DNA from: Candidatus Poribacteria bacterium
GTDB lineage: Bacteria; Poribacteria; WGA-4E; PCPOR2b
Assembly: GCA_965208675.1 (NCBI GenBank)
Contig: OZ242351.1
Location: 1,632,001 to 1,696,000, forward strand
Direction of reading: 5' to 3'
DNA length: 64,000 nucleotides
The position numbers and the translations under genes were made by a program. Below the pieces are notes generated by a model. It saw only the letters and a list, made by a program, of their open reading frames with translations. It did no database searches and had not been told where the DNA came from. Below are positions 54,545-64,000 of this stretch, one piece after another. Positions within the stretch are counted from its first letter, which is position 1, and each line of letters begins with the position of its first letter.

Positions 54545-56395
54545 TCATTCCACACCCCACACGAAATTACCGTCAATATCGCGCACCTTCAAGAATGAGT
54601 AGCTACGTAAGCCATCGCCATCGTTTACGGTATATTGGATTTGACCAACAAGAGTTCTAAAAATCTCACGGACAAAATCTATCGTTGACGGGAGCATTGA
54701 ACGAATCAGCTCAATTTCCGCCCCTGAATCCTCACCTTCAAACACGACTGGTACCTGTTCCGCAAGCGTATCCACCATCTGTTCAAGCGACCGGGCTGGA
54801 TTAGAGTAAACCATGTTATTGACCGTCTCTGGCGCCATACTACGGAGTTCTTTAAATTGGGTCTGTGTTAACAGGTTTTCCGCTGTACCGTTCGCACAAT
54901 CAAGCGCAAGTTTCAGGTCTGCGGGTCCGGTTGAAATCAACACGTACTGATCGGTCACGACGTAGCTCGGTTGATATGGAACGTTTGGAAGTTCAGCCGT
55001 GCGAATCTGGTGCCCGGCATGGTCGACCGTCTCCCAGTTCAGCGCCAGGCCCATGATTGCGCCCAAAGTCATCGCAACCGTATCTGTTAATTGTCCGAGA
55101 CTATCTCCCGCTTTTTCGCTGTCTGACGTTTGAATTGAAAGCAGGAATTGCGGCAATGCGCCGCCTGTACCAACGCCCATTGGGGGCGATAACATGGTGA
55201 ACCCCGTTTGGAAGAATGCAATTTCATTTCCCATCCACGAAAGTAGATCACTTTCTATGTCGATGTCCATCATTGCCTGAATCTGCTCTAGGCTGCCGAA
55301 TGCCTCTCGGCTCATTTCAGGCGGCATGGACGCGACGAAGTCCATCAGCATCTGCCAGAGTTTGGGAAGATTAATGAGATTGAACGCATTATAAGAAATG
55401 ACGTCAGCGTGCGCGAACTTTATGGATTCGTGGTGCGTCGGTTCGGCCAACAGCATCATCCGGAAGTTGTTGGCTGTCGCGTTGGGATTGAGTTTGATGT
55501 AGCTCTGCGACACAATCCCATTGTTCGTGAGGTGCGTAACCCCGCTCACCCATTGCACCAGGTCCAACCACTTGATCGCCCGATCCGCTAGTAATCTGAC
55601 CTCGTCATCCAACTCGCCGCGGACCATTGGATAAAACGACTCTGCCAATTCAGGGATTGAGCTTAAATCGAGGTAGAATACCGTCTGAAAATCGGTCACG
55701 CTTTCACCCTGAAATCGGTCGATGTGTTGGACAAATTTCGGGTCTTTGGCGAGGCTAGCGTCCGACTTGCCTAGGTAGAGGTCTATTGTCCGGCGCATTG
55801 ACGCTTCCCCCAAGCTGGCAACCAGAAAGCTGTCGATCAGCCCGCATGAAATGACTAGGTTCGGTTCAGGCTCGGCTGACATAAAAAAGTACCCGTTGTA
55901 TTCGCGGCGTTCCGCCTCTGGTATGTTCGCCATTCCGACCATAATCGCCGCCGACAGTATCTCTCCGAGGTCATCTGATTGATCTATATTGACCATAAGC
56001 GTTGGGGAAAATTCACTCAGATCCCGGAACTTGGGAACGACAATTAGGATTTCCTGACCAAGTAGGCGTGAAAGGATTGAGAAGCTTGGCTTGATGAGGC
56101 GGCGCATTTCCTTTATCTCGGTTTCTCTTTCAAAAACCCCTTGCAGTGGCTCCCAGATTGGCGCTTCAAGAAGTTGCTGCCACGCTCGGGAGTTTTCAAT
56201 CAGCGCGAGTGCTTCGGCGGCGTCCTTTATTTGCATCACGAGTAAGGCATCTGCCGGCGCAAGGTCCATGAGGGATGGAGTAGGCGCCGCCTCAGCTACA
56301 GGTTCTACGTGCGGTTTCACACCGCATGAACAGATGCTAATGAGAAATATGAGAATAAATGCGAGGATATGATATGTGCTGTTTCTTTCGGTCAT
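54545..56395 (-). CDS. Hypothetical lipoprotein (DUF3352-like)
   Basis: Lipobox-like ICSC, LLSWMGNEIAF and PSYVVTDQYVLIST. Confidence 0.65.
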   Translation of the reverse strand: MTERNSTYHILAFILIFLISICSCGVKPHVEPVAEAAPTPSLMDLAPADALLVMQIKDAAEALALIENSRAWQQLLEAPIWEPLQGVFERETEIKEMRRLIKPSFSILSRLLGQEILIVVPKFRDLSEFSPTLMVNIDQSDDLGEILSAAIMVGMANIPEAERREYNGYFFMSAEPEPNLVISCGLIDSFLVASLGEASMRRTIDLYLGKSDASLAKDPKFVQHIDRFQGESVTDFQTVFYLDLSSIPELAESFYPMVRGELDDEVRLLADRAIKWLDLVQWVSGVTHLTNNGIVSQSYIKLNPNATANNFRMMLLAEPTHHESIKFAHADVISYNAFNLINLPKLWQMLMDFVASMPPEMSREAFGSLEQIQAMMDIDIESDLLSWMGNEIAFFQTGFTMLSPPMGVGTGGALPQFLLSIQTSDSEKAGDSLGQLTDTVAMTLGAIMGLALNWETVDHAGHQIRTAELPNVPYQPSYVVTDQYVLISTGPADLKLALDCANGTAENLLTQTQFKELRSMAPETVNNMVYSNPARSLEQMVDTLAEQVPVVFEGEDSGAEIELIRSMLPSTIDFVREIFRTLVGQIQYTVNDGDGLRSYSFLKVRDIDGNFVWGVE

Positions 56396-56468
56396 TTGAA
56401 TAGCTCCTAGTATGAATAGGGTGGTTCAAAAAAGGTTGGAATTGAAATATGGATTCGGACTACCCAAC

Positions 56469-57113
56469 CTACACACTTTTGATACCTTCAGAAGACGGAG
56501 AAAATACGTCGCTGAACCTTGGCAGCCACTTTGTGAACAGCGCCACGGCTTCTTCATCTTGACGGGTCAGAGAGAACATATAGCGGCCTTTACCCGCATA
56601 CGACAGTGTATAGCGACCGTGGGCTGTTGGCCCCATAGCAACCATTCCAACCGCTCGTCCGATGTTGAACCGACCTCTTGGTGCGGACCACTTGTCGATT
56701 GCCCCATAACGCGAACCTGCGCCAAGCGCTATTACTCCAAGCGCATTGCCGCCGAACGCGAAAATGCCCACGGAGTACCCACCAAAGGCAAAGATACCGA
56801 CGGAGCCCGCTCCAAATGCGACCACACCAATAGAGCATGGACCAACAGCGATCACGCCAACTGTCACAATTCCGACTGCGATTATCCCGATAGTGATGAA
56901 CCCGAAAGTCTCTTCGCCCATCGGGGAGTAGAAACCAAAATTGACGATTGAGCGGATGAACGGCGGAAGTTCCGAGTTTGTTGCTCTAACTAGCATGGGG
57001 ACGAAAAACAGCGAAAAAGCGACGCCAAATGAAATTGAAACGCCTATATTCCATCTACGAAAATAGGCGTCAAACGTCTCTTGAAAAGATTTGGGGCACA
57101 TTTCTCTTGACAT
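56469..57113 (-). CDS. Hypothetical membrane protein with Gly-periodic repeats
   Basis: GIIAVGIVTVGVIAVGPCSIGVVAFGAGSVGIFAFGGYSVGIFAFGGNALG. ATG 57113 follows GGAGG. Confidence 0.75.
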   Translation of the reverse strand: MSREMCPKSFQETFDAYFRRWNIGVSISFGVAFSLFFVPMLVRATNSELPPFIRSIVNFGFYSPMGEETFGFITIGIIAVGIVTVGVIAVGPCSIGVVAFGAGSVGIFAFGGYSVGIFAFGGNALGVIALGAGSRYGAIDKWSAPRGRFNIGRAVGMVAMGPTAHGRYTLSYAGKGRYMFSLTRQDEEAVALFTKWLPRFSDVFSPSSEGIKSV

Positions 57114-57255
57114 AAACTCTAGGCCTCCTTCCACGCAGCAACGCCGTGCAATTGAGAGCTATAGCTAATCGTTGGTGTTGAATGGCGGGGCGACGAGACT
57201 TTTTACGGGGCGGTTCTGGATCTCGCTAAGTGTGCTTCAGATTTGAGGTGAAAAA

Positions 57256-57906
57256 TCAAGGAGTGAAGTTCTGGTTCGCATCAAAAAGAGGTATCAAGTC
57301 CTTATCCAAGCCAAAAGCTGCATACACGCCCTCTACCAAACTGTAAGCGACCTGATCTGGAATAAAATCCGGGTTCACTGTCTGTTTGGACACAATCGGT
57401 GCAGTCGACGTGTACACATTTCGCTCATGTTTTACTGTTCCAAAAAGTGGATTGAGGGGATGTCTTCCCACCAATAGAAAACCACTGAGATTATGATACT
57501 CCTGCTGCACATGAACCAGAGTATTTATGCCAGCGGTTTGGTAAATTTCCTTGACCAACCGCATAAACGTAACTGGATACTCACAGACCCCATACGGGTA
57601 CAACCAGTTCAGATGGGAAGGGATTCCGCTTTCTGCCTTGTACCACTGAAACTGTATGCGAGACAGTGGACTTTGAAGCTCGAGTAGACCGTTCCGCGAA
57701 AGTACGACTTCATAACCCCAAGCATCTATCCCTTTTATTCCTTGCAGCGAAGGTTCTATACGCGTGACGCCTATGAAGCCAAATCCAGTTCTGCGGACAT
57801 TGGGCGGATTTCGCAGTATGTCACGAATACCTTGATCATCTGTGTGGACGGCGTTGGGATTGGATGTAATGGCTTCTGCGTGGATCCGATAATAAGCTCC
57901 GTTCAA
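57256..57906 (-). CDS. Hypothetical protein coupled to the AlbA_2 gene
   Basis: The TTG start overlaps the upstream TGA (TTGA) and has AAGGAGG 5 nt upstream. 216 aa, globular. Confidence 0.75.
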   Translation of the reverse strand: MNGAYYRIHAEAITSNPNAVHTDDQGIRDILRNPPNVRRTGFGFIGVTRIEPSLQGIKGIDAWGYEVVLSRNGLLELQSPLSRIQFQWYKAESGIPSHLNWLYPYGVCEYPVTFMRLVKEIYQTAGINTLVHVQQEYHNLSGFLLVGRHPLNPLFGTVKHERNVYTSTAPIVSKQTVNPDFIPDQVAYSLVEGVYAAFGLDKDLIPLFDANQNFTP

Positions 57907-58547
57907 GATAGCCTCCTTAGGACTTCATCAAATCGTCGTTCGAATAAACCAATTAGATCCGCGATGTCCCGTTGTCCTAGGGCACTGCCGGAAAGGTTGT
58001 CCAATTTATCATGAAGCTCACGAATGCCAGATGGTAATTGGCGGGCCGAAAAGTCATCCCTGAGATCGGTCATACGGTATTCTCTCGTGTGATTTCCATA
58101 CCGTCGAACAAACTGGATGGCGTTTTCCAACAGTATACTGTGAGGGCGTACTTCACTCGGAGGGATATGAATAATCACAAGCGTGATGTCGTTTCCATTG
58201 CACGTAATTGAACGCGGCTTAACTTCCAGTCCCCGAATGCGCGGGTCAATGAAATCTAGGCAAATGCTGTTAATGCTTTCCGCCACCCTCTCGGGCTCAC
58301 CCACGGAGCAAAAGCCCGTTGCTAGCTCATCCGTTGCGTCCACGCCGATCAGAATGTATCCTCCTTCTGAATTTGCCATCGCAGTAACATCCTTGCATAT
58401 CTCTCGTCTCAGCTTTATTCTGGAACCGCTGAGAGGGTATTCCCGCTTAAACTCAATCCACTGATTTTCTTCCTGATTTCCTATCAAACCCGCCAGTTCC
58501 TGGTCTGGGATGTCTGCAATGAGGCGATAACAATCGTCAAAATTCAT
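57903..58547 (-). CDS. Schlafen/AlbA_2 domain protein
   Basis: EENQWIEFKRE, KDVTAMANSEGGYILIGV and IHIPPSEVRPH. Confidence 0.88.
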   Translation of the reverse strand: MNFDDCYRLIADIPDQELAGLIGNQEENQWIEFKREYPLSGSRIKLRREICKDVTAMANSEGGYILIGVDATDELATGFCSVGEPERVAESINSICLDFIDPRIRGLEVKPRSITCNGNDITLVIIHIPPSEVRPHSILLENAIQFVRRYGNHTREYRMTDLRDDFSARQLPSGIRELHDKLDNLSGSALGQRDIADLIGLFERRFDEVLRRLS

Positions 58548-58817
58548 TCAATCTAATTGGATGCTTTGAAGAGGTTTACGGTTCCGATAGCAATGTTCGT
58601 CAATTTGGGAATGATAACATATTTTGGGTACATTTAAAAAAGCCTTGAGTGTCCCAAGTTTAGCTGTTTCTTCAAGTTGAATCTCAATTGCCTCAAGGAG
58701 ATTTTTTCTTTCCTGTTCAACATCGCTTCCGCAACTTGCAACATCTAGCTCTGGACAGTAAGCGGTGTACATGTTGCCTTCTTGCCAAATTTCTTCCGTA
58801 ACGACGAGGTTCTTCAC
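58548..58817 (-). CDS. HicB-family antitoxin-like protein, probably C-terminally truncated
   Basis: EGNMYTAYCPELDVASCG...KNLLEAIEIQLE. The tail after TLKAFL looks non-homologous. No hicA seen. Confidence 0.7.
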   Translation of the reverse strand: MKNLVVTEEIWQEGNMYTAYCPELDVASCGSDVEQERKNLLEAIEIQLEETAKLGTLKAFLNVPKICYHSQIDEHCYRNRKPLQSIQLD

Positions 58818-58911
58818 TTTCGACCCCAAATACTGGTTAATAGTTCTCGTGAAATAAAACGGCAGGACCTGTATCTACCGTCAAGGATAGGCGCAGACAT
58901 GCTTATTAACA

Positions 58912-58940
58912 ATTATAGCACTCAACTCAGGATTGGTCAA
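58912..58940 (-). promoter_or_regulatory. Sigma-70-type promoter of the hicB-AlbA_2 operon
   Basis: TTGACC-17 bp-TATAAT with an extended -10 TG, minus strand. Confidence 0.7.
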
Positions 58941-59138: not shown

Positions 59139-59351
59139 GTAGGTTGGGTTGAGCGGTTTTGGTGATATCCAACGTATTTGAAGCGTTCAGGGGGGCAAGG
59201 CAAATATCCACAAGACGAAGATTTTATCCCCAAATGCCAGCGAAAATTACAGTGTTTACGGTCCATAAAAAAAGGGGAATATTGCAACAGTGCTAGTCAA
59301 CGGGCGGGTTTAGAGGCGTTGGGTTTGGCGAACTCGCTCAACCCAACACAC
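59139..59351. repeat. REP-like inverted doublet (GTAGGTTGGGTTGAGCG family)
   Basis: GTAGGTTGGGTTGAGCG at 59139 and CGCTCAACCCAACACAC at 59335. A further degenerate copy lies at ~62048-62083. Confidence 0.7.
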
Positions 59352-60053: not shown

Positions 60054-61457
60054 TCACCCGCTTACGGACAATTTCAGGTCTTCAACGCGTTTCCACAATT
60101 TGTCACGATCTTCTCCACGCGGCTGCGGAATCAGCATACTACTCCAAAGCCTTTTCAGTTCGTCAGCACCGCTCTCGTCAAGCTCCTCTAGACCAATTAT
60201 CCACTGTTGAATTCTGCGTCCGCAACGGACCGCCTCTTTCCTCTCCTCATTACGCATTGCCCAGTCACCCTTTGCGTTGCGTACCAACAGGAGATACCGC
60301 CAGGGAGCTTGATGCAGACGCCATTCTAACCTGCCAAGTCCCTTTAACGCTGTACGGACCCCATTGGCGGTCGGAGTTGCCACATTCGGAAGGTTGTTGT
60401 CGAGTATGGTTCTCGCGAACTCGGCTAGCAACTGTTGGCCTATAGGCCAAAACAAAAGGGAATCTGTCATCTCTTCACCCTCGACTAATTCAATGTGATG
60501 AACCCGCATCAGGGGTGGAGATTTTTGAAGATCGGGAATTTCGGCGATTAAGGCATTCCAATACATCTCCAATTCTTCGTAAAGCGCATCAATGTAGTCT
60601 TCGGGGGGACGAAACCGCTTGAAATTCTTCAAATCTTGTCCTTGGTCCAAAATTGGGCCCCATCCTCTTGGCGTTCGGCGTACCGAACTAAGCAGCGCTA
60701 TGTTCATCTCGTACAAGGTTTCGAGGCTAGTGAAATACGGATCAATACTCTTGAGGTTTTTTCCTTTTTGTGTTTTTATACGCCTTGATTCTATCTGTCT
60801 GCCTTCAGATTTGAAGAAATTATGCTCGGTAATCAAGCGCCGTGTGAGAATTGCAAACGTATCGTCTTCATCCATTATGATGTTCGTTGCCGCATCCGTC
60901 GGTTTGGCATAGCGGTTAAGATTGGAGAACAATCGCCGGTACTTTGGCAAGAAGTCGGACTCTTCTCGACTAGGTACAATGACTATTACGGAAAGTTCAT
61001 CGTTCTCAAAATTTTCAGGAGCACCATCGGAAATTGGATTGTTTCGATCAAGCAAAGTCTTGATGGCTGAGAGGCGATGCTGTCCATCAAGGGCATAATA
61101 TTTCTGGGTTCCATCGAACTTCAAGACACCAAAAGACTCGTTGAGTCGCTGATCGTCATGAAAAATTGCGAAATGTGGATCGTCAGTAATCTCAACAGGA
61201 TAGAACATCGGATTGCCCTCTAACGCGGCCACGACCAAAGAGGAGAAGAAACGGTTGGGTTGGTGTCTCAGATATTCGACGATTTCCTTATTAACTCGGT
61301 CGTGTCGTAGGACTCGCTGAATTGCTTCATCAAGGGTGCGATCTTCATAAACTTCAGAAGCAAATTTCACGTTTTCACTTAGTTCTCGCGCACTCATCTT
61401 GACGACATAGTAACTAAACGTACCCATTCTCGAACGTAATGCGGGATATATATTCAT
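60054..61457 (-). CDS. DGQHR-domain (DndB-like, ParB/sulfiredoxin superfamily) protein
   Basis: AIQRVL, FFSSLVVA, YALDGQHRLSAIK, RRLFSNLNRYAK and IMDEDD. GGAGG RBS. Confidence 0.9.
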   Translation of the reverse strand: MNIYPALRSRMGTFSYYVVKMSARELSENVKFASEVYEDRTLDEAIQRVLRHDRVNKEIVEYLRHQPNRFFSSLVVAALEGNPMFYPVEITDDPHFAIFHDDQRLNESFGVLKFDGTQKYYALDGQHRLSAIKTLLDRNNPISDGAPENFENDELSVIVIVPSREESDFLPKYRRLFSNLNRYAKPTDAATNIIMDEDDTFAILTRRLITEHNFFKSEGRQIESRRIKTQKGKNLKSIDPYFTSLETLYEMNIALLSSVRRTPRGWGPILDQGQDLKNFKRFRPPEDYIDALYEELEMYWNALIAEIPDLQKSPPLMRVHHIELVEGEEMTDSLLFWPIGQQLLAEFARTILDNNLPNVATPTANGVRTALKGLGRLEWRLHQAPWRYLLLVRNAKGDWAMRNEERKEAVRCGRRIQQWIIGLEELDESGADELKRLWSSMLIPQPRGEDRDKLWKRVEDLKLSVSG

Positions 61458-62140: not shown

Positions 62141-64000
62141 TCAATCTGCCAATGACTGCATGAACGAATCTGAACCGAAATTCAGGATGAATGCGGCATA
62201 TTGACTTTCAAATAAATCTTGAAGATAATCGTCTAGTTCGACATTGGAATCGCCAGTGTCCTTTTCCTGCGTGAATTTGTAGTTGCGCTTTTTCGTGATG
62301 GTATAGAGGAAGAGGGTATGGAAATAAACCGAGGCGATATATTTTCGGCTGGCTAAATCAAGCTGTTCTTCATTCGGATTTTTGGGCTTAAAATTCATGA
62401 ACACGGTGCTATCCATATTGACATAGATTTTCTCTAACTTCTCCCCATCAACCATGGGATACATTACAGTGGAATAATCTATTGTTTTTGACGTTGCGTT
62501 TTGCACTTGCTCCCAAGTTACTGTGTTATCCTTTTGTTCTTGATAAGTCAATATCAATTCTGGCAAACCTAAATTGGGAATGTCGATAGTTTCTGGCTTC
62601 TTTGTTTTCTCCTGAGGGGCCTTCGGCTCGCTTATTCTTACCCAAAAGGCTTCAGACTCAAATTCGCCGCTCGGATCGCACAGACTTGCCTGTATTTTTG
62701 CAGCATCTCCCACTTGTGTGGTTTCTTTCGGGTTTAAATGGATTTTTATGGTACCTCGTTCAGGACTACTTCTGTTTATATTGAACATGTTCTCAATTTG
62801 GTCGACTTTCCCAGGGGCATTGCCTCCACTGGAATTGTTCGTTTTGAAACCGAGAATAGCAAGTTTCAATTTACCGGGAGCTTCAATACGGTCAAAATAG
62901 TGATCTTCCACATCCGTATCAAAAAGAATTGTCTTCTCGCCACCAATTGGCACTGCCACCGGTTTATCGGCATCACCTTTGGCCCGTCGCTGAAAAAATG
63001 ATGGAAATCTTTTCGGGTTAAATGGTAGCGGATCTTCTCGCCGCTTGTTTTTGGCCTTGCCCTGACCTTTTTTCGGTTTTCCGTTATTCTGTTGGTCCAA
63101 TTTCAAAGTTTGAGAGAGTAGTTTCATCAGGTCACTATCCATTGGCAGACTCTGCGTTAACGACCTCAGCATGTCTTTTGTATCCTTACTCTCCACCGAT
63201 ATGGATTCTTTTCGGTTCCTCTGAATTTCCGCCAAGCGTCCGTTCTTACCCCCAAGTTTTTCAGCGAGGAATCTTCGCAATTGCCTTGTTTCTTCACCAT
63301 CTTTCAATCGGTCACGAGAAGCCATGGATAACTCTTTACGAAAATTATAGTCCATGTTTGCGCAATCAACATGTATCAGGAGATGCTCCTTGAGCAAATT
63401 CAATTTTAAGGAACGGGTTATGAATTCAGAAGTGTAGTGTCCGTGGACTTGCCCATTAACGGAAAACAGCACAGACATGTTATTCTTAAAAAATTCGCTA
63501 CGAATGACCTCCTTGGTTTCCTTTACGGATCTATCGTCTAGTTTTGTTTTGAAGACATAGCACGTTACTTTCATTTTCCCGAAAAGTTTGTCGTCAAAGT
63601 CTTCAGAAAAATATGTCTCCACATACTTGCTGTCATCCTGTTCTAATCTGCGTTTTAATCCGTATAAAGCCCTTTGCAAAGCACGATCGTGAGGATATCG
63701 TTTTTCCTTATCAACAGTAATCACCGGCAGAGTCGGTTCAAAGAGATATTCATTTATACTTCGGTTCAAGTCCCTCGAAATGACCGAGCGAATTCCCTTT
63801 GGCAGATCGTAGGAGTAGAGTTTGATTACGGTGCCAGTGCGGAAAACCCTATTGTTCAAGCCAAGGTTCTGTTGCTCGGAGCGAAAAGACGGAATTGTCC
63901 CATTAATTTTCAAGAATTCGTACCACGTATTCTTCTTGGTTTTCTTCTCCTGCGCACTGAGAGGATGTTGTCGAATAAGCGTGAATCCAAATTTACCCGT
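62141..64000 (-). CDS. Large hypothetical protein, probably the C-terminal part of a GHKL/MORC-like ATPase family protein; 5' end outside window
   Basis: The frame is open to the edge (TGKFGFTLIRQHP...). Contains LFSVNGQVHG and MASRDRL. The ATPase motifs themselves are not in the window. Confidence 0.6.
   Translation of the reverse strand, partial: TGKFGFTLIRQHPLSAQEKKTKKNTWYEFLKINGTIPSFRSEQQNLGLNNRVFRTGTVIKLYSYDLPKGIRSVISRDLNRSINEYLFEPTLPVITVDKEKRYPHDRALQRALYGLKRRLEQDDSKYVETYFSEDFDDKLFGKMKVTCYVFKTKLDDRSVKETKEVIRSEFFKNNMSVLFSVNGQVHGHYTSEFITRSLKLNLLKEHLLIHVDCANMDYNFRKELSMASRDRLKDGEETRQLRRFLAEKLGGKNGRLAEIQRNRKESISVESKDTKDMLRSLTQSLPMDSDLMKLLSQTLKLDQQNNGKPKKGQGKAKNKRREDPLPFNPKRFPSFFQRRAKGDADKPVAVPIGGEKTILFDTDVEDHYFDRIEAPGKLKLAILGFKTNNSSGGNAPGKVDQIENMFNINRSSPERGTIKIHLNPKETTQVGDAAKIQASLCDPSGEFESEAFWVRISEPKAPQEKTKKPETIDIPNLGLPELILTYQEQKDNTVTWEQVQNATSKTIDYSTVMYPMVDGEKLEKIYVNMDSTVFMNFKPKNPNEEQLDLASRKYIASVYFHTLFLYTITKKRNYKFTQEKDTGDSNVELDDYLQDLFESQYAAFILNFGSDSFMQSLAD

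Follow-up and report, generated by a model that had tools for sequence, protein, structure and literature searches.

The window, a 64,000-nt stretch of a Candidatus Poribacteria genome (contig OZ242351.1 of assembly GCA_965208675.1, positions 1,632,001 to 1,696,000 of the forward strand), contains a two-gene cassette in which a Schlafen-type nuclease gene (ORF1) runs into an overlapping gene for an unnamed partner protein (ORF2). The relevant features, in window coordinates, are:

57174..58634, strand not assigned: the two-gene cassette, approximate extent (in blastn, the same-genus genome G002 matches 54549-57173 and resumes at 58635)
57256..57906, minus strand: ORF2, 216 aa with a TTG start, an unnamed alpha/beta partner domain
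57903..57906, minus strand: TTGA overlap of the ORF1 stop and the ORF2 start, with ORF2 in the -1 frame
57903..58547, minus strand: ORF1, 214 aa, a single-lobe prokaryotic Schlafen (AlbA_2) RNase domain with a helical tail
57906..57974, minus strand: helix at the C-terminus of ORF1 (roughly residues 192-214), whose homologue in fused proteins precedes the partner domain
57912..57918, minus strand: AAGGAGG Shine-Dalgarno sequence of ORF2, 5 nt before the TTG and inside the last codons of ORF1
58371..58385, minus strand: TAMAN, the Schlafen box (SAFAN-like) of ORF1, from the sequence
58446..58469, minus strand: catalytic motif E27-x4-E32-F-K34 of ORF1, from the sequence
58548..58829, minus strand: HicB/UPF0150-like ORF whose stop abuts the ATG of ORF1 (PF21748, E 0.056, below cut-off)
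58611..58638, minus strand: promoter-like site with an extended -10 in the cassette leader, a consensus match only (9/12 with TG)
60054..61457, minus strand: DGQHR-domain gene (TIGR03187, E 1.6e-29; PF14072)
62141..64000, minus strand: 3' part of a HATPase-like gene (814 aa)

The ORF coordinates, strands, TTGA overlap and AAGGAGG site given in the original prediction were all confirmed in the sequence. A PF04326 match (E 2.8e-16; 60.5 bits, cut-off 25.3) spans residues 27-156 of ORF1, which shows the hallmarks of prokaryotic Schlafens (pSlfns): a PF04326 domain of more than 100 aa, the catalytic Ex4(E/D)xK motif (E27-NQWI-E32-F-K34) and a SAFAN-like box (TAMAN). The Ex4ExK nuclease motif is as defined in PMC13056530, and the SAFAN-like Schlafen box as described in bioRxiv 10.64898/2026.05.29.728809. 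Residues E27, K34, A58 and N59 are invariant across 61 aligned homologues. The nuclease half of the model of a fused relative matches SLFN11, SAMD9 and DIP2311 (E 1e-4 to 1e-6). The earlier description of ORF1 as a 214-aa AlbA_2 domain with an intact E-x4-EFK motif, a SAMAN-like box and a helical tail is therefore borne out by the PF04326 match and the sequence. The GHKL ATPase that follows the Schlafen domain in Schlatpases (the 'HisKinase' pSlfn classes) was not seen, as no HATPase Pfam match was found in ORF1, in ORF2 or in 105 scanned distant relatives.

In the fused relative's model (overall pLDDT 88.6, pTM 0.57), a helix at residues 210-225 (pLDDT 91-95) follows a low-confidence linker and lies directly before the partner domain; the pTM implies no fixed domain packing in the monomer. 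The homologous C-terminal helix of ORF1 could dock onto ORF2. ORF1 carries this candidate docking helix only in the window's junction type; elsewhere it has been deleted or lies outside the reading frame.

ORF2 has no match in Pfam, PADLOC or NCBIfam, as anticipated for a 216-aa protein of no known family. Its best 20 non-self matches are stand-alone proteins (180-250 aa, 68-84% identity), and the top fused match is 66% identical. In other proteins, this domain comes after Schlafen, TIR, TIR+TPR, FRG+TPR or DGQHR domains on the same chain. Searching for fused versus split homologues, as had been proposed, recovered the ORF2 domain behind the nuclease in many relatives: among 77 longer homologues, AlbA_2 is present in 61, TPR repeats in 14 (examples of which carry an additional TIR or FRG domain) and a DGQHR/DndB domain in 2. 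A profile search gave 312 representatives (E <= 0.001). AlbA_2 was found in 51 and TIR in 4 of the distant relatives scanned (105 of the 150 listed, excluding short fragments and proteins already seen). In P0143, P0219, P0221 and P0225, the TIR domain lies immediately before the partner domain, and in a separate clade (P0083, P0088, L028-L040) a TIR or FRG domain at the N-terminus is followed by TPR repeats and then by the partner domain. These TIR/FRG + TPR and direct TIR architectures look like unexamined defence proteins.

The AlphaFold2 model of ORF2 (pLDDT 93.6, pTM 0.91) has a predicted fold that is only weakly TBP-like. Foldseek ranked TBPs top (best E 0.017, TM 0.23), and VIA placed an AdoMetDC-like fold first (Z 6.6-6.7, rmsd 3.8, 122 aligned) with TBP below it (Z 5.1, rmsd 9.0, 118 aligned). 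No fold match reached E <= 0.001 in the PDB or viral models, or Z >= 8, and the AdoMetDC-like and TBP rows may reflect merely a common arrangement. Among solved structures there was no sequence relative (one row, E 0.82), and the ESM Atlas neighbours are unnamed clusters. No relatives were found in viral contigs, JGI metagenome contigs or phage records, nor any of the partner in plasmids, where one search matched the AlbA_2 part only.

The split is genuine and conserved, and is not a frameshift error. Contigs X1 and X3 (from one sample, possibly the source of this genome) cover the stretch with 0 differences and 0 gaps. Contig X6, from another study and 92.5% identical, covers 57806-58650 with 63 substitutions and 0 gaps and keeps the split; the X5 run stops short of the junction. 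Within the last 31 codons of ORF1 (57909-57996), 7 of 8 X6 substitutions (counted among the listed 40 of 224 substitution rows) are synonymous in the ORF1 frame and all 8 alter an ORF2-frame residue, indicating that the ORF1 tail is translated to its stop. Three other nucleases of 214-215 aa (61-85% identity) terminate where ORF1 does. The two outcomes that would have spoken for an artefact, an indel near 57905 and uniformly fused close homologues, did not materialize, with X1, X3 and X6 gapless at the junction and the best 20 matches stand-alone. The halves do sum to nearly the length of the fused homologues, which are common, as would be predicted if a fused gene had been misassembled or had recently become a pseudogene. 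This explanation is scarcely credible and largely refuted by the gapless contigs, including the divergent X6, by the homologues with the same end point and by split clades that are old and under purifying selection.

Fused relatives of about 440 aa, with a Schlafen domain followed by the partner domain, are widespread. Among 176 Poribacteria genomes, 42 contain ORF2 matches, at 53 loci. Fused forms comprise 11 intact genes, 2 with an insertion in the partner half, 1 with an internal deletion and 9 behind long, mostly TPR-like N-termini (judged from translations). Split forms comprise 14 intact pairs (excluding G003, and leaving out G098c, whose nuclease falls in a run of N), 4 pairs with a broken nuclease and 1 with both halves broken. 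Another 6 loci are partner-only within split clades, 1 is a distant partner-only locus and 4 are unclassifiable. The partner half of the fused gene is broken by a ~220-nt element with short repeated ends in G018 (L018), and by a ~1.2-kb transposase-like insertion in G031 (L022).

In a partner-domain tree of 93 rows, two split clades are nested among fused genes. Clade 1 (22 rows, support 99/96) contains the window, G003, G060 and 19 proteins known as gene calls only; clade 2 (21 rows, support 100/98) has the fused gene of G092 as its sister. P0050 and P0062 (679 aa), in which the partner domain lies behind a DGQHR/DndB domain, are sister to clade 1. In an AU test, which used a quick tree and a group chosen after the first tree, the partner-domain data rejected a single split clade (p about 1e-48) and the nuclease-domain data did not (p 0.155). 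At the level of sequence, these data show at least two fissions in separate Poribacteria lineages, with differing junctions, and the placement of the pair shows that it arose by fission from a fused pSlfn architecture that was already there. The suggestion of an undescribed system accordingly holds for a split variant with an unnamed partner, and fails for an unrelated new system. The nuclease and partner trees conflict within clade 2, suggesting that halves may have been exchanged inside this clade.

At the window junction, 11 extra bases relative to the fused gene of G006 end ORF1 and leave a ribosome-binding site (RBS) made from Glu-Glu-Ala-type codons; the ORF1 frame was probably ended by this 11-nt insertion, which may have originated as a tandem duplication. 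G003 keeps the window type and adds an earlier in-frame stop followed by an ATG, an arrangement that fits many 197-aa plus 248-aa protein calls, and G060 is without the 11 extra bases. The frame of the G003 nuclease gene is shifted at its 5' end (L016:9120-9290) by a ~46-nt tandem triplication, possibly an assembly feature. In clade 2 the overlap is ATGA (once GTGA) and lies further upstream, and the linker helix is deleted.

An internal RBS of equal strength, lacking a start, is already present in the fused gene of G006, and the TTG in that of G061, so the ORF2 site appears to be partly inherited, probably having begun as Glu-Glu-Ala/Val codons of the fused gene. A site inherited from fused codons is by itself no proof of design. 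Of the proposal that the overlap and RBS reflect deliberate coupling and not a frameshift, the genuine split therefore stands and the RBS as proof of design does not. Genome-wide, 27 of 65,343 TTGA sites have an AAGGAGG ending 4-9 nt upstream.

A fused protein could still be made by programmed -1 frameshifting or read-through, given the -1 frame of ORF2, which the window shares with clade 2, and the TTTAAAG heptamer that occurs within the overlap at 6 of 13 clade-2 loci. We consider this very unlikely, since the slippery heptamer is absent from the window's 19-nt overlap and from the other 7 clade-2 loci, leaving no conserved site, the open overlap in G161 is only 1 nt, the X6 tail substitutions listed above all change the ORF2-frame residue, and the G003 type carries an in-frame stop.

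The cassette site in G002 holds other DNA, and the cassette is unmatched in G001. The cassette occupies one edge of a variable island that carries DGQHR, HATPase-like, GmrSD_N-HNH, sspD, sspC and sspB genes, the last four past the window (window-equivalent 64.6-73.6 kb; G000:C1:1696000-1705600). From the DUF3352-adjacent genes to sspD, the content varies among G001, G002 and G003, pointing to a defence hotspot. In a neighbour scan of 65 of 112 representatives from split and solo loci, the G003 and G060 neighbours include SspC/D, type II RM and HNH genes, and clade-2 neighbours are mostly housekeeping genes (e.g. lpxD, spoU, pfkB and tatC). The predicted defence-like island is thus seen at the window locus (ssp, DGQHR, GmrSD_N-HNH). 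In the window, 1.5 kb separate the cassette from the DGQHR gene upstream of it; the solo partner gene of G060 (L118:5500-7681) lies ~115 nt behind a DGQHR gene. A link of the partner to phosphorothioation-associated genes is possible. The HicB-like ORF at 58548..58829 has many related copies in the compared sequencing runs and is present in G002 without the cassette; it is best taken as a neighbour of the module. Its 3' end extends into the cassette leader, and a sigma-70-like site (11/12 match, 58912-58940, minus strand) precedes it.

Translation signals in the split pairs favor the partner. ORF1 has no detectable Shine-Dalgarno sequence (anti-SD duplex +0.1 kcal/mol), and the ORF2 site forms a duplex of -10.8 kcal/mol with the 16S tail of this genome; 0.75% of random 15-mers (n = 2000) reach -10 kcal/mol or lower. 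With the same 16S tail, the partner RBS is the stronger one in 13 of the 14 intact split pairs (mean -8.5 against -3.8 kcal/mol for the nuclease), although 13 of these 14 pairs come from a single clade, so that p-values for the comparison overstate its significance. Fused gene starts average -6.8 kcal/mol (10 of 11 scored). Together with the TTGA and ATGA overlaps, this partner bias provides the coupled operon and antitoxin-biased translation signals of a type II toxin-antitoxin pair. Promoter-like sites numbered 4 against a chance expectation of 4.0; the -10 stretch of the one in the cassette leader recurs upstream of the G003 nuclease gene.

After fission, the nuclease diverges faster than the partner in both split clades, the reverse of fused genes. 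The nuclease is the more conserved half in 36/55 and 130/171 fused pairs, but in only 2/78 clade-2 pairs and 1/45 clade-1 pairs, the nuclease/partner pairing in clade 1 being deduced from contigs of equal length. Values of dN/dS in clade 2 are 0.35 for the nuclease and 0.24 for the partner (78 non-independent pairs), compared with 0.20 (12/55 pairs usable) and 0.28 (38/55), respectively, in fused genes, ratios that show both halves to be under purifying selection. In 4 of 6 independent clade-2 pairs, the nuclease pN/pS is 0.40-0.51. Of 38 screened stand-alone nucleases, 37 retain the catalytic motif, and the sole miss shows the motif further forward.

Loss in the split clades is one-sided. At 10 loci (9 events) an intact partner stands next to a nuclease that has been broken or deleted, whereas an intact nuclease with a broken or absent partner was found at 0 loci, despite a separate ORF1 search; both halves are broken at 1. 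This is the pattern of a type II toxin gene, which is not kept without its antitoxin gene, with the caveat to the 10-to-0 count that two fused genes have a truncated partner. In these genes (G018 and G031) the nuclease is intact and about 60% of the partner is left, indicating that losing the full partner is not always lethal. In G089 and G087 (L089:4928-5650, L090:4946-5668), a shared in-frame deletion joins the first codons of the nuclease to the partner, and 7 synonymous and 2 non-synonymous changes separate the two partners. Five solo-partner genomes were searched and yielded distant Schlafens only, with no close nuclease. A solo partner under purifying selection without a close nuclease needs another job.

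The last observation raises the possibility that the partner is selected for a job of its own, perhaps with other effectors in trans, and that the costly nuclease is uncoupled, weakly expressed, relaxed and often lost, the halves acting separately. Faster nuclease divergence in both clades, the clade-2 pN/pS values, the weak nuclease RBS, frequent nuclease breakage and the selected solo partners are all in keeping with this. Against it, the nuclease dN/dS is well below 1, the motif persists in nearly all stand-alone nucleases, the intact coupled pairs endure, and a close intact split-type nuclease without a partner was not found. On balance we think this unlikely.

The translation signals and the one-sided loss suggest instead that the partner now restrains the nuclease like an antitoxin. 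Our leading interpretation, held tentatively and just short of an even chance, is that an excess of partner restrains the nuclease in a toxin-antitoxin-like manner, probably in phage defence. A fused Schlafen-partner gene would have split into two translationally coupled genes, the stop in the nuclease frame leaving a Shine-Dalgarno sequence and a TTG for the partner, which would be made in excess over the nuclease. Bound by the partner, possibly through the tail helix of ORF1, the nuclease would stay inactive. Release would come from a trigger, most likely a phage infection that the partner senses or that depletes it; the free nuclease would then oligomerize and cut tRNA, arresting translation. 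The module would in effect work as a type II toxin-antitoxin pair, with an auto-restrained single-chain pSlfn as its ancestor. The conserved split with its 14 intact pairs, the partner-biased RBSs, the loss pattern, the ssp defence context and the partner domain's fusion to TIR in 4 of 105 scanned distant relatives favor restraint. Other observations weigh against it: one-sided loss is also expected of a merely costly nuclease, truncated partners occur in G018 and G031, solo partners are under selection, and the trees conflict within clade 2. The restriction of the docking helix to the window type, the fused model's pTM of 0.57 and the clade-2 housekeeping context likewise count against restraint, as does activation of the nuclease by the fused domain, through oligomerization, in Cash and RzAgo. 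A 1:1 complex prediction of ORF1 and ORF2 with their own alignments scored 0.00 against a mark of 0.32, with controls that were not folded, and counts neither for nor against restraint.

Type II toxin-antitoxin pairs include a toxin-first order, as in HigBA-like systems. The module resembles these in having two coupled genes with the RNase first, a stronger partner RBS and orphan partners that persist. It differs in that its partner is large (216 aa), is without a Pfam DNA-binding domain, derives from a fused domain and is the more conserved half, and its neutralizing role is putative.

Restraint must also be weighed against a trans-acting sensor-activator, in which a nuclease without activity of its own is bound, and assembled into the active oligomer, once the partner senses a phage cue. 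Characterized pSlfns depend on the fused domain for activation, as far as described in PMC13056530, PMC13462974 and bioRxiv 10.64898/2026.05.29.728809; the last two describe activation through oligomerization in Cash and RzAgo. The partner domain is common to Schlafen, TIR and DGQHR fusions, and truncated fused genes with an intact nuclease exist. However, such an activator predicts symmetric loss of the halves, contrary to the 10-to-0 count, and the partner is the more conserved half after fission, whereas pSlfn5 sensors are the more variable half in the account of PMC13056530. We regard the activator as improbable and retain restraint by excess partner as the working interpretation. A broader proposal, speculative and rather doubtful, is that fission repeatedly turned an auto-restrained single-chain Schlafen into a toxin-antitoxin-like pair with RBSs retuned for regulator excess, the freed partner being an undescribed, portable regulatory domain, common to Schlafen, TIR, FRG/TPR and DGQHR proteins and still selected for acting on effectors in trans.

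Prokaryotic Schlafens have been classified as pSlfn1-55 (Perez Taboada et al., Nat Microbiol 2026, PMC13056530), and are described there as trigger-dependent tRNases of which 97.1% are fused, with 173 'pSlfn_only' proteins. The closest known class to this module is pSlfn8 ('pSlfn.TBP-like'; 89 proteins, defence score 0.82), which is not among the architectures that the available text of PMC13056530 gives as tested. Shared features are an N-terminal AlbA_2 domain with Ex4(E/D)xK, fused relatives of ~440 aa like several of the pSlfn8 genes listed there, weakly scoring TBPs as the partner's top Foldseek rows and the location of clade 1 in defence islands. Unlike pSlfn8, the nuclease and partner here are encoded as two ORFs that differ in frame and are separated by a stop, and the single polypeptide of that class is found only in the fused relatives. 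Two pSlfn8 members compared with the partner showed no significant homology (HMM E 0.15 or no match; hhalign probability 0.6%, in one case over 124 columns).

Characterized prokaryotic Schlafens are sensor-fused, according to the available text of PMC13552941. Like RorSlfn5, Cash (Schlafen-Csx15, PMC13462974) and RzAgo (SLFN-pAgo), which are described as single-lobe Schlafen tRNases that are inactive until triggered and whose activity depends on oligomeric state, the module has a single-lobe Schlafen domain. Those proteins are described as single chains with Ig-like, Csx15 or GHKL-Ago sensors, whereas the regulator here is another domain encoded by a separate gene, with no ATPase, CRISPR or Argonaute link seen. 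No description of the split was found in the open literature, subscription journals falling mostly outside the scope of the search. In sum, the module is a genuine split form of a fused prokaryotic Schlafen that is conserved and has arisen twice; it bears toxin-antitoxin-like signatures and includes an uncharacterized partner domain.

For most of the 55 architectures, the available text of PMC13056530 leaves open how the nuclease is controlled by its partner domain. Natural splits beside fused versions (50-66% identical) offer a direct test of whether the partner inhibits or activates the nuclease, as each half can be expressed alone with no engineered cut. They also provide a traceable case of a toxin-antitoxin-like pair born by fission, and the partner draws attention to an unnamed domain also employed together with TIR and other effectors.

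Several minor features surround the cassette. An Rfam scan of 56-64 kb gave no match, and the cassette ends carry no informative repeats. The interval 59139-59347 contains short sequences that recur many times in this and related genomes, together with a perfect 13-nt inverted repeat, and is possibly a miniature mobile element. At the island edge, a genus-conserved 221-aa ORF (56469-57134, minus strand) is membrane-like, has no Pfam match and contains glycine-rich repeats.
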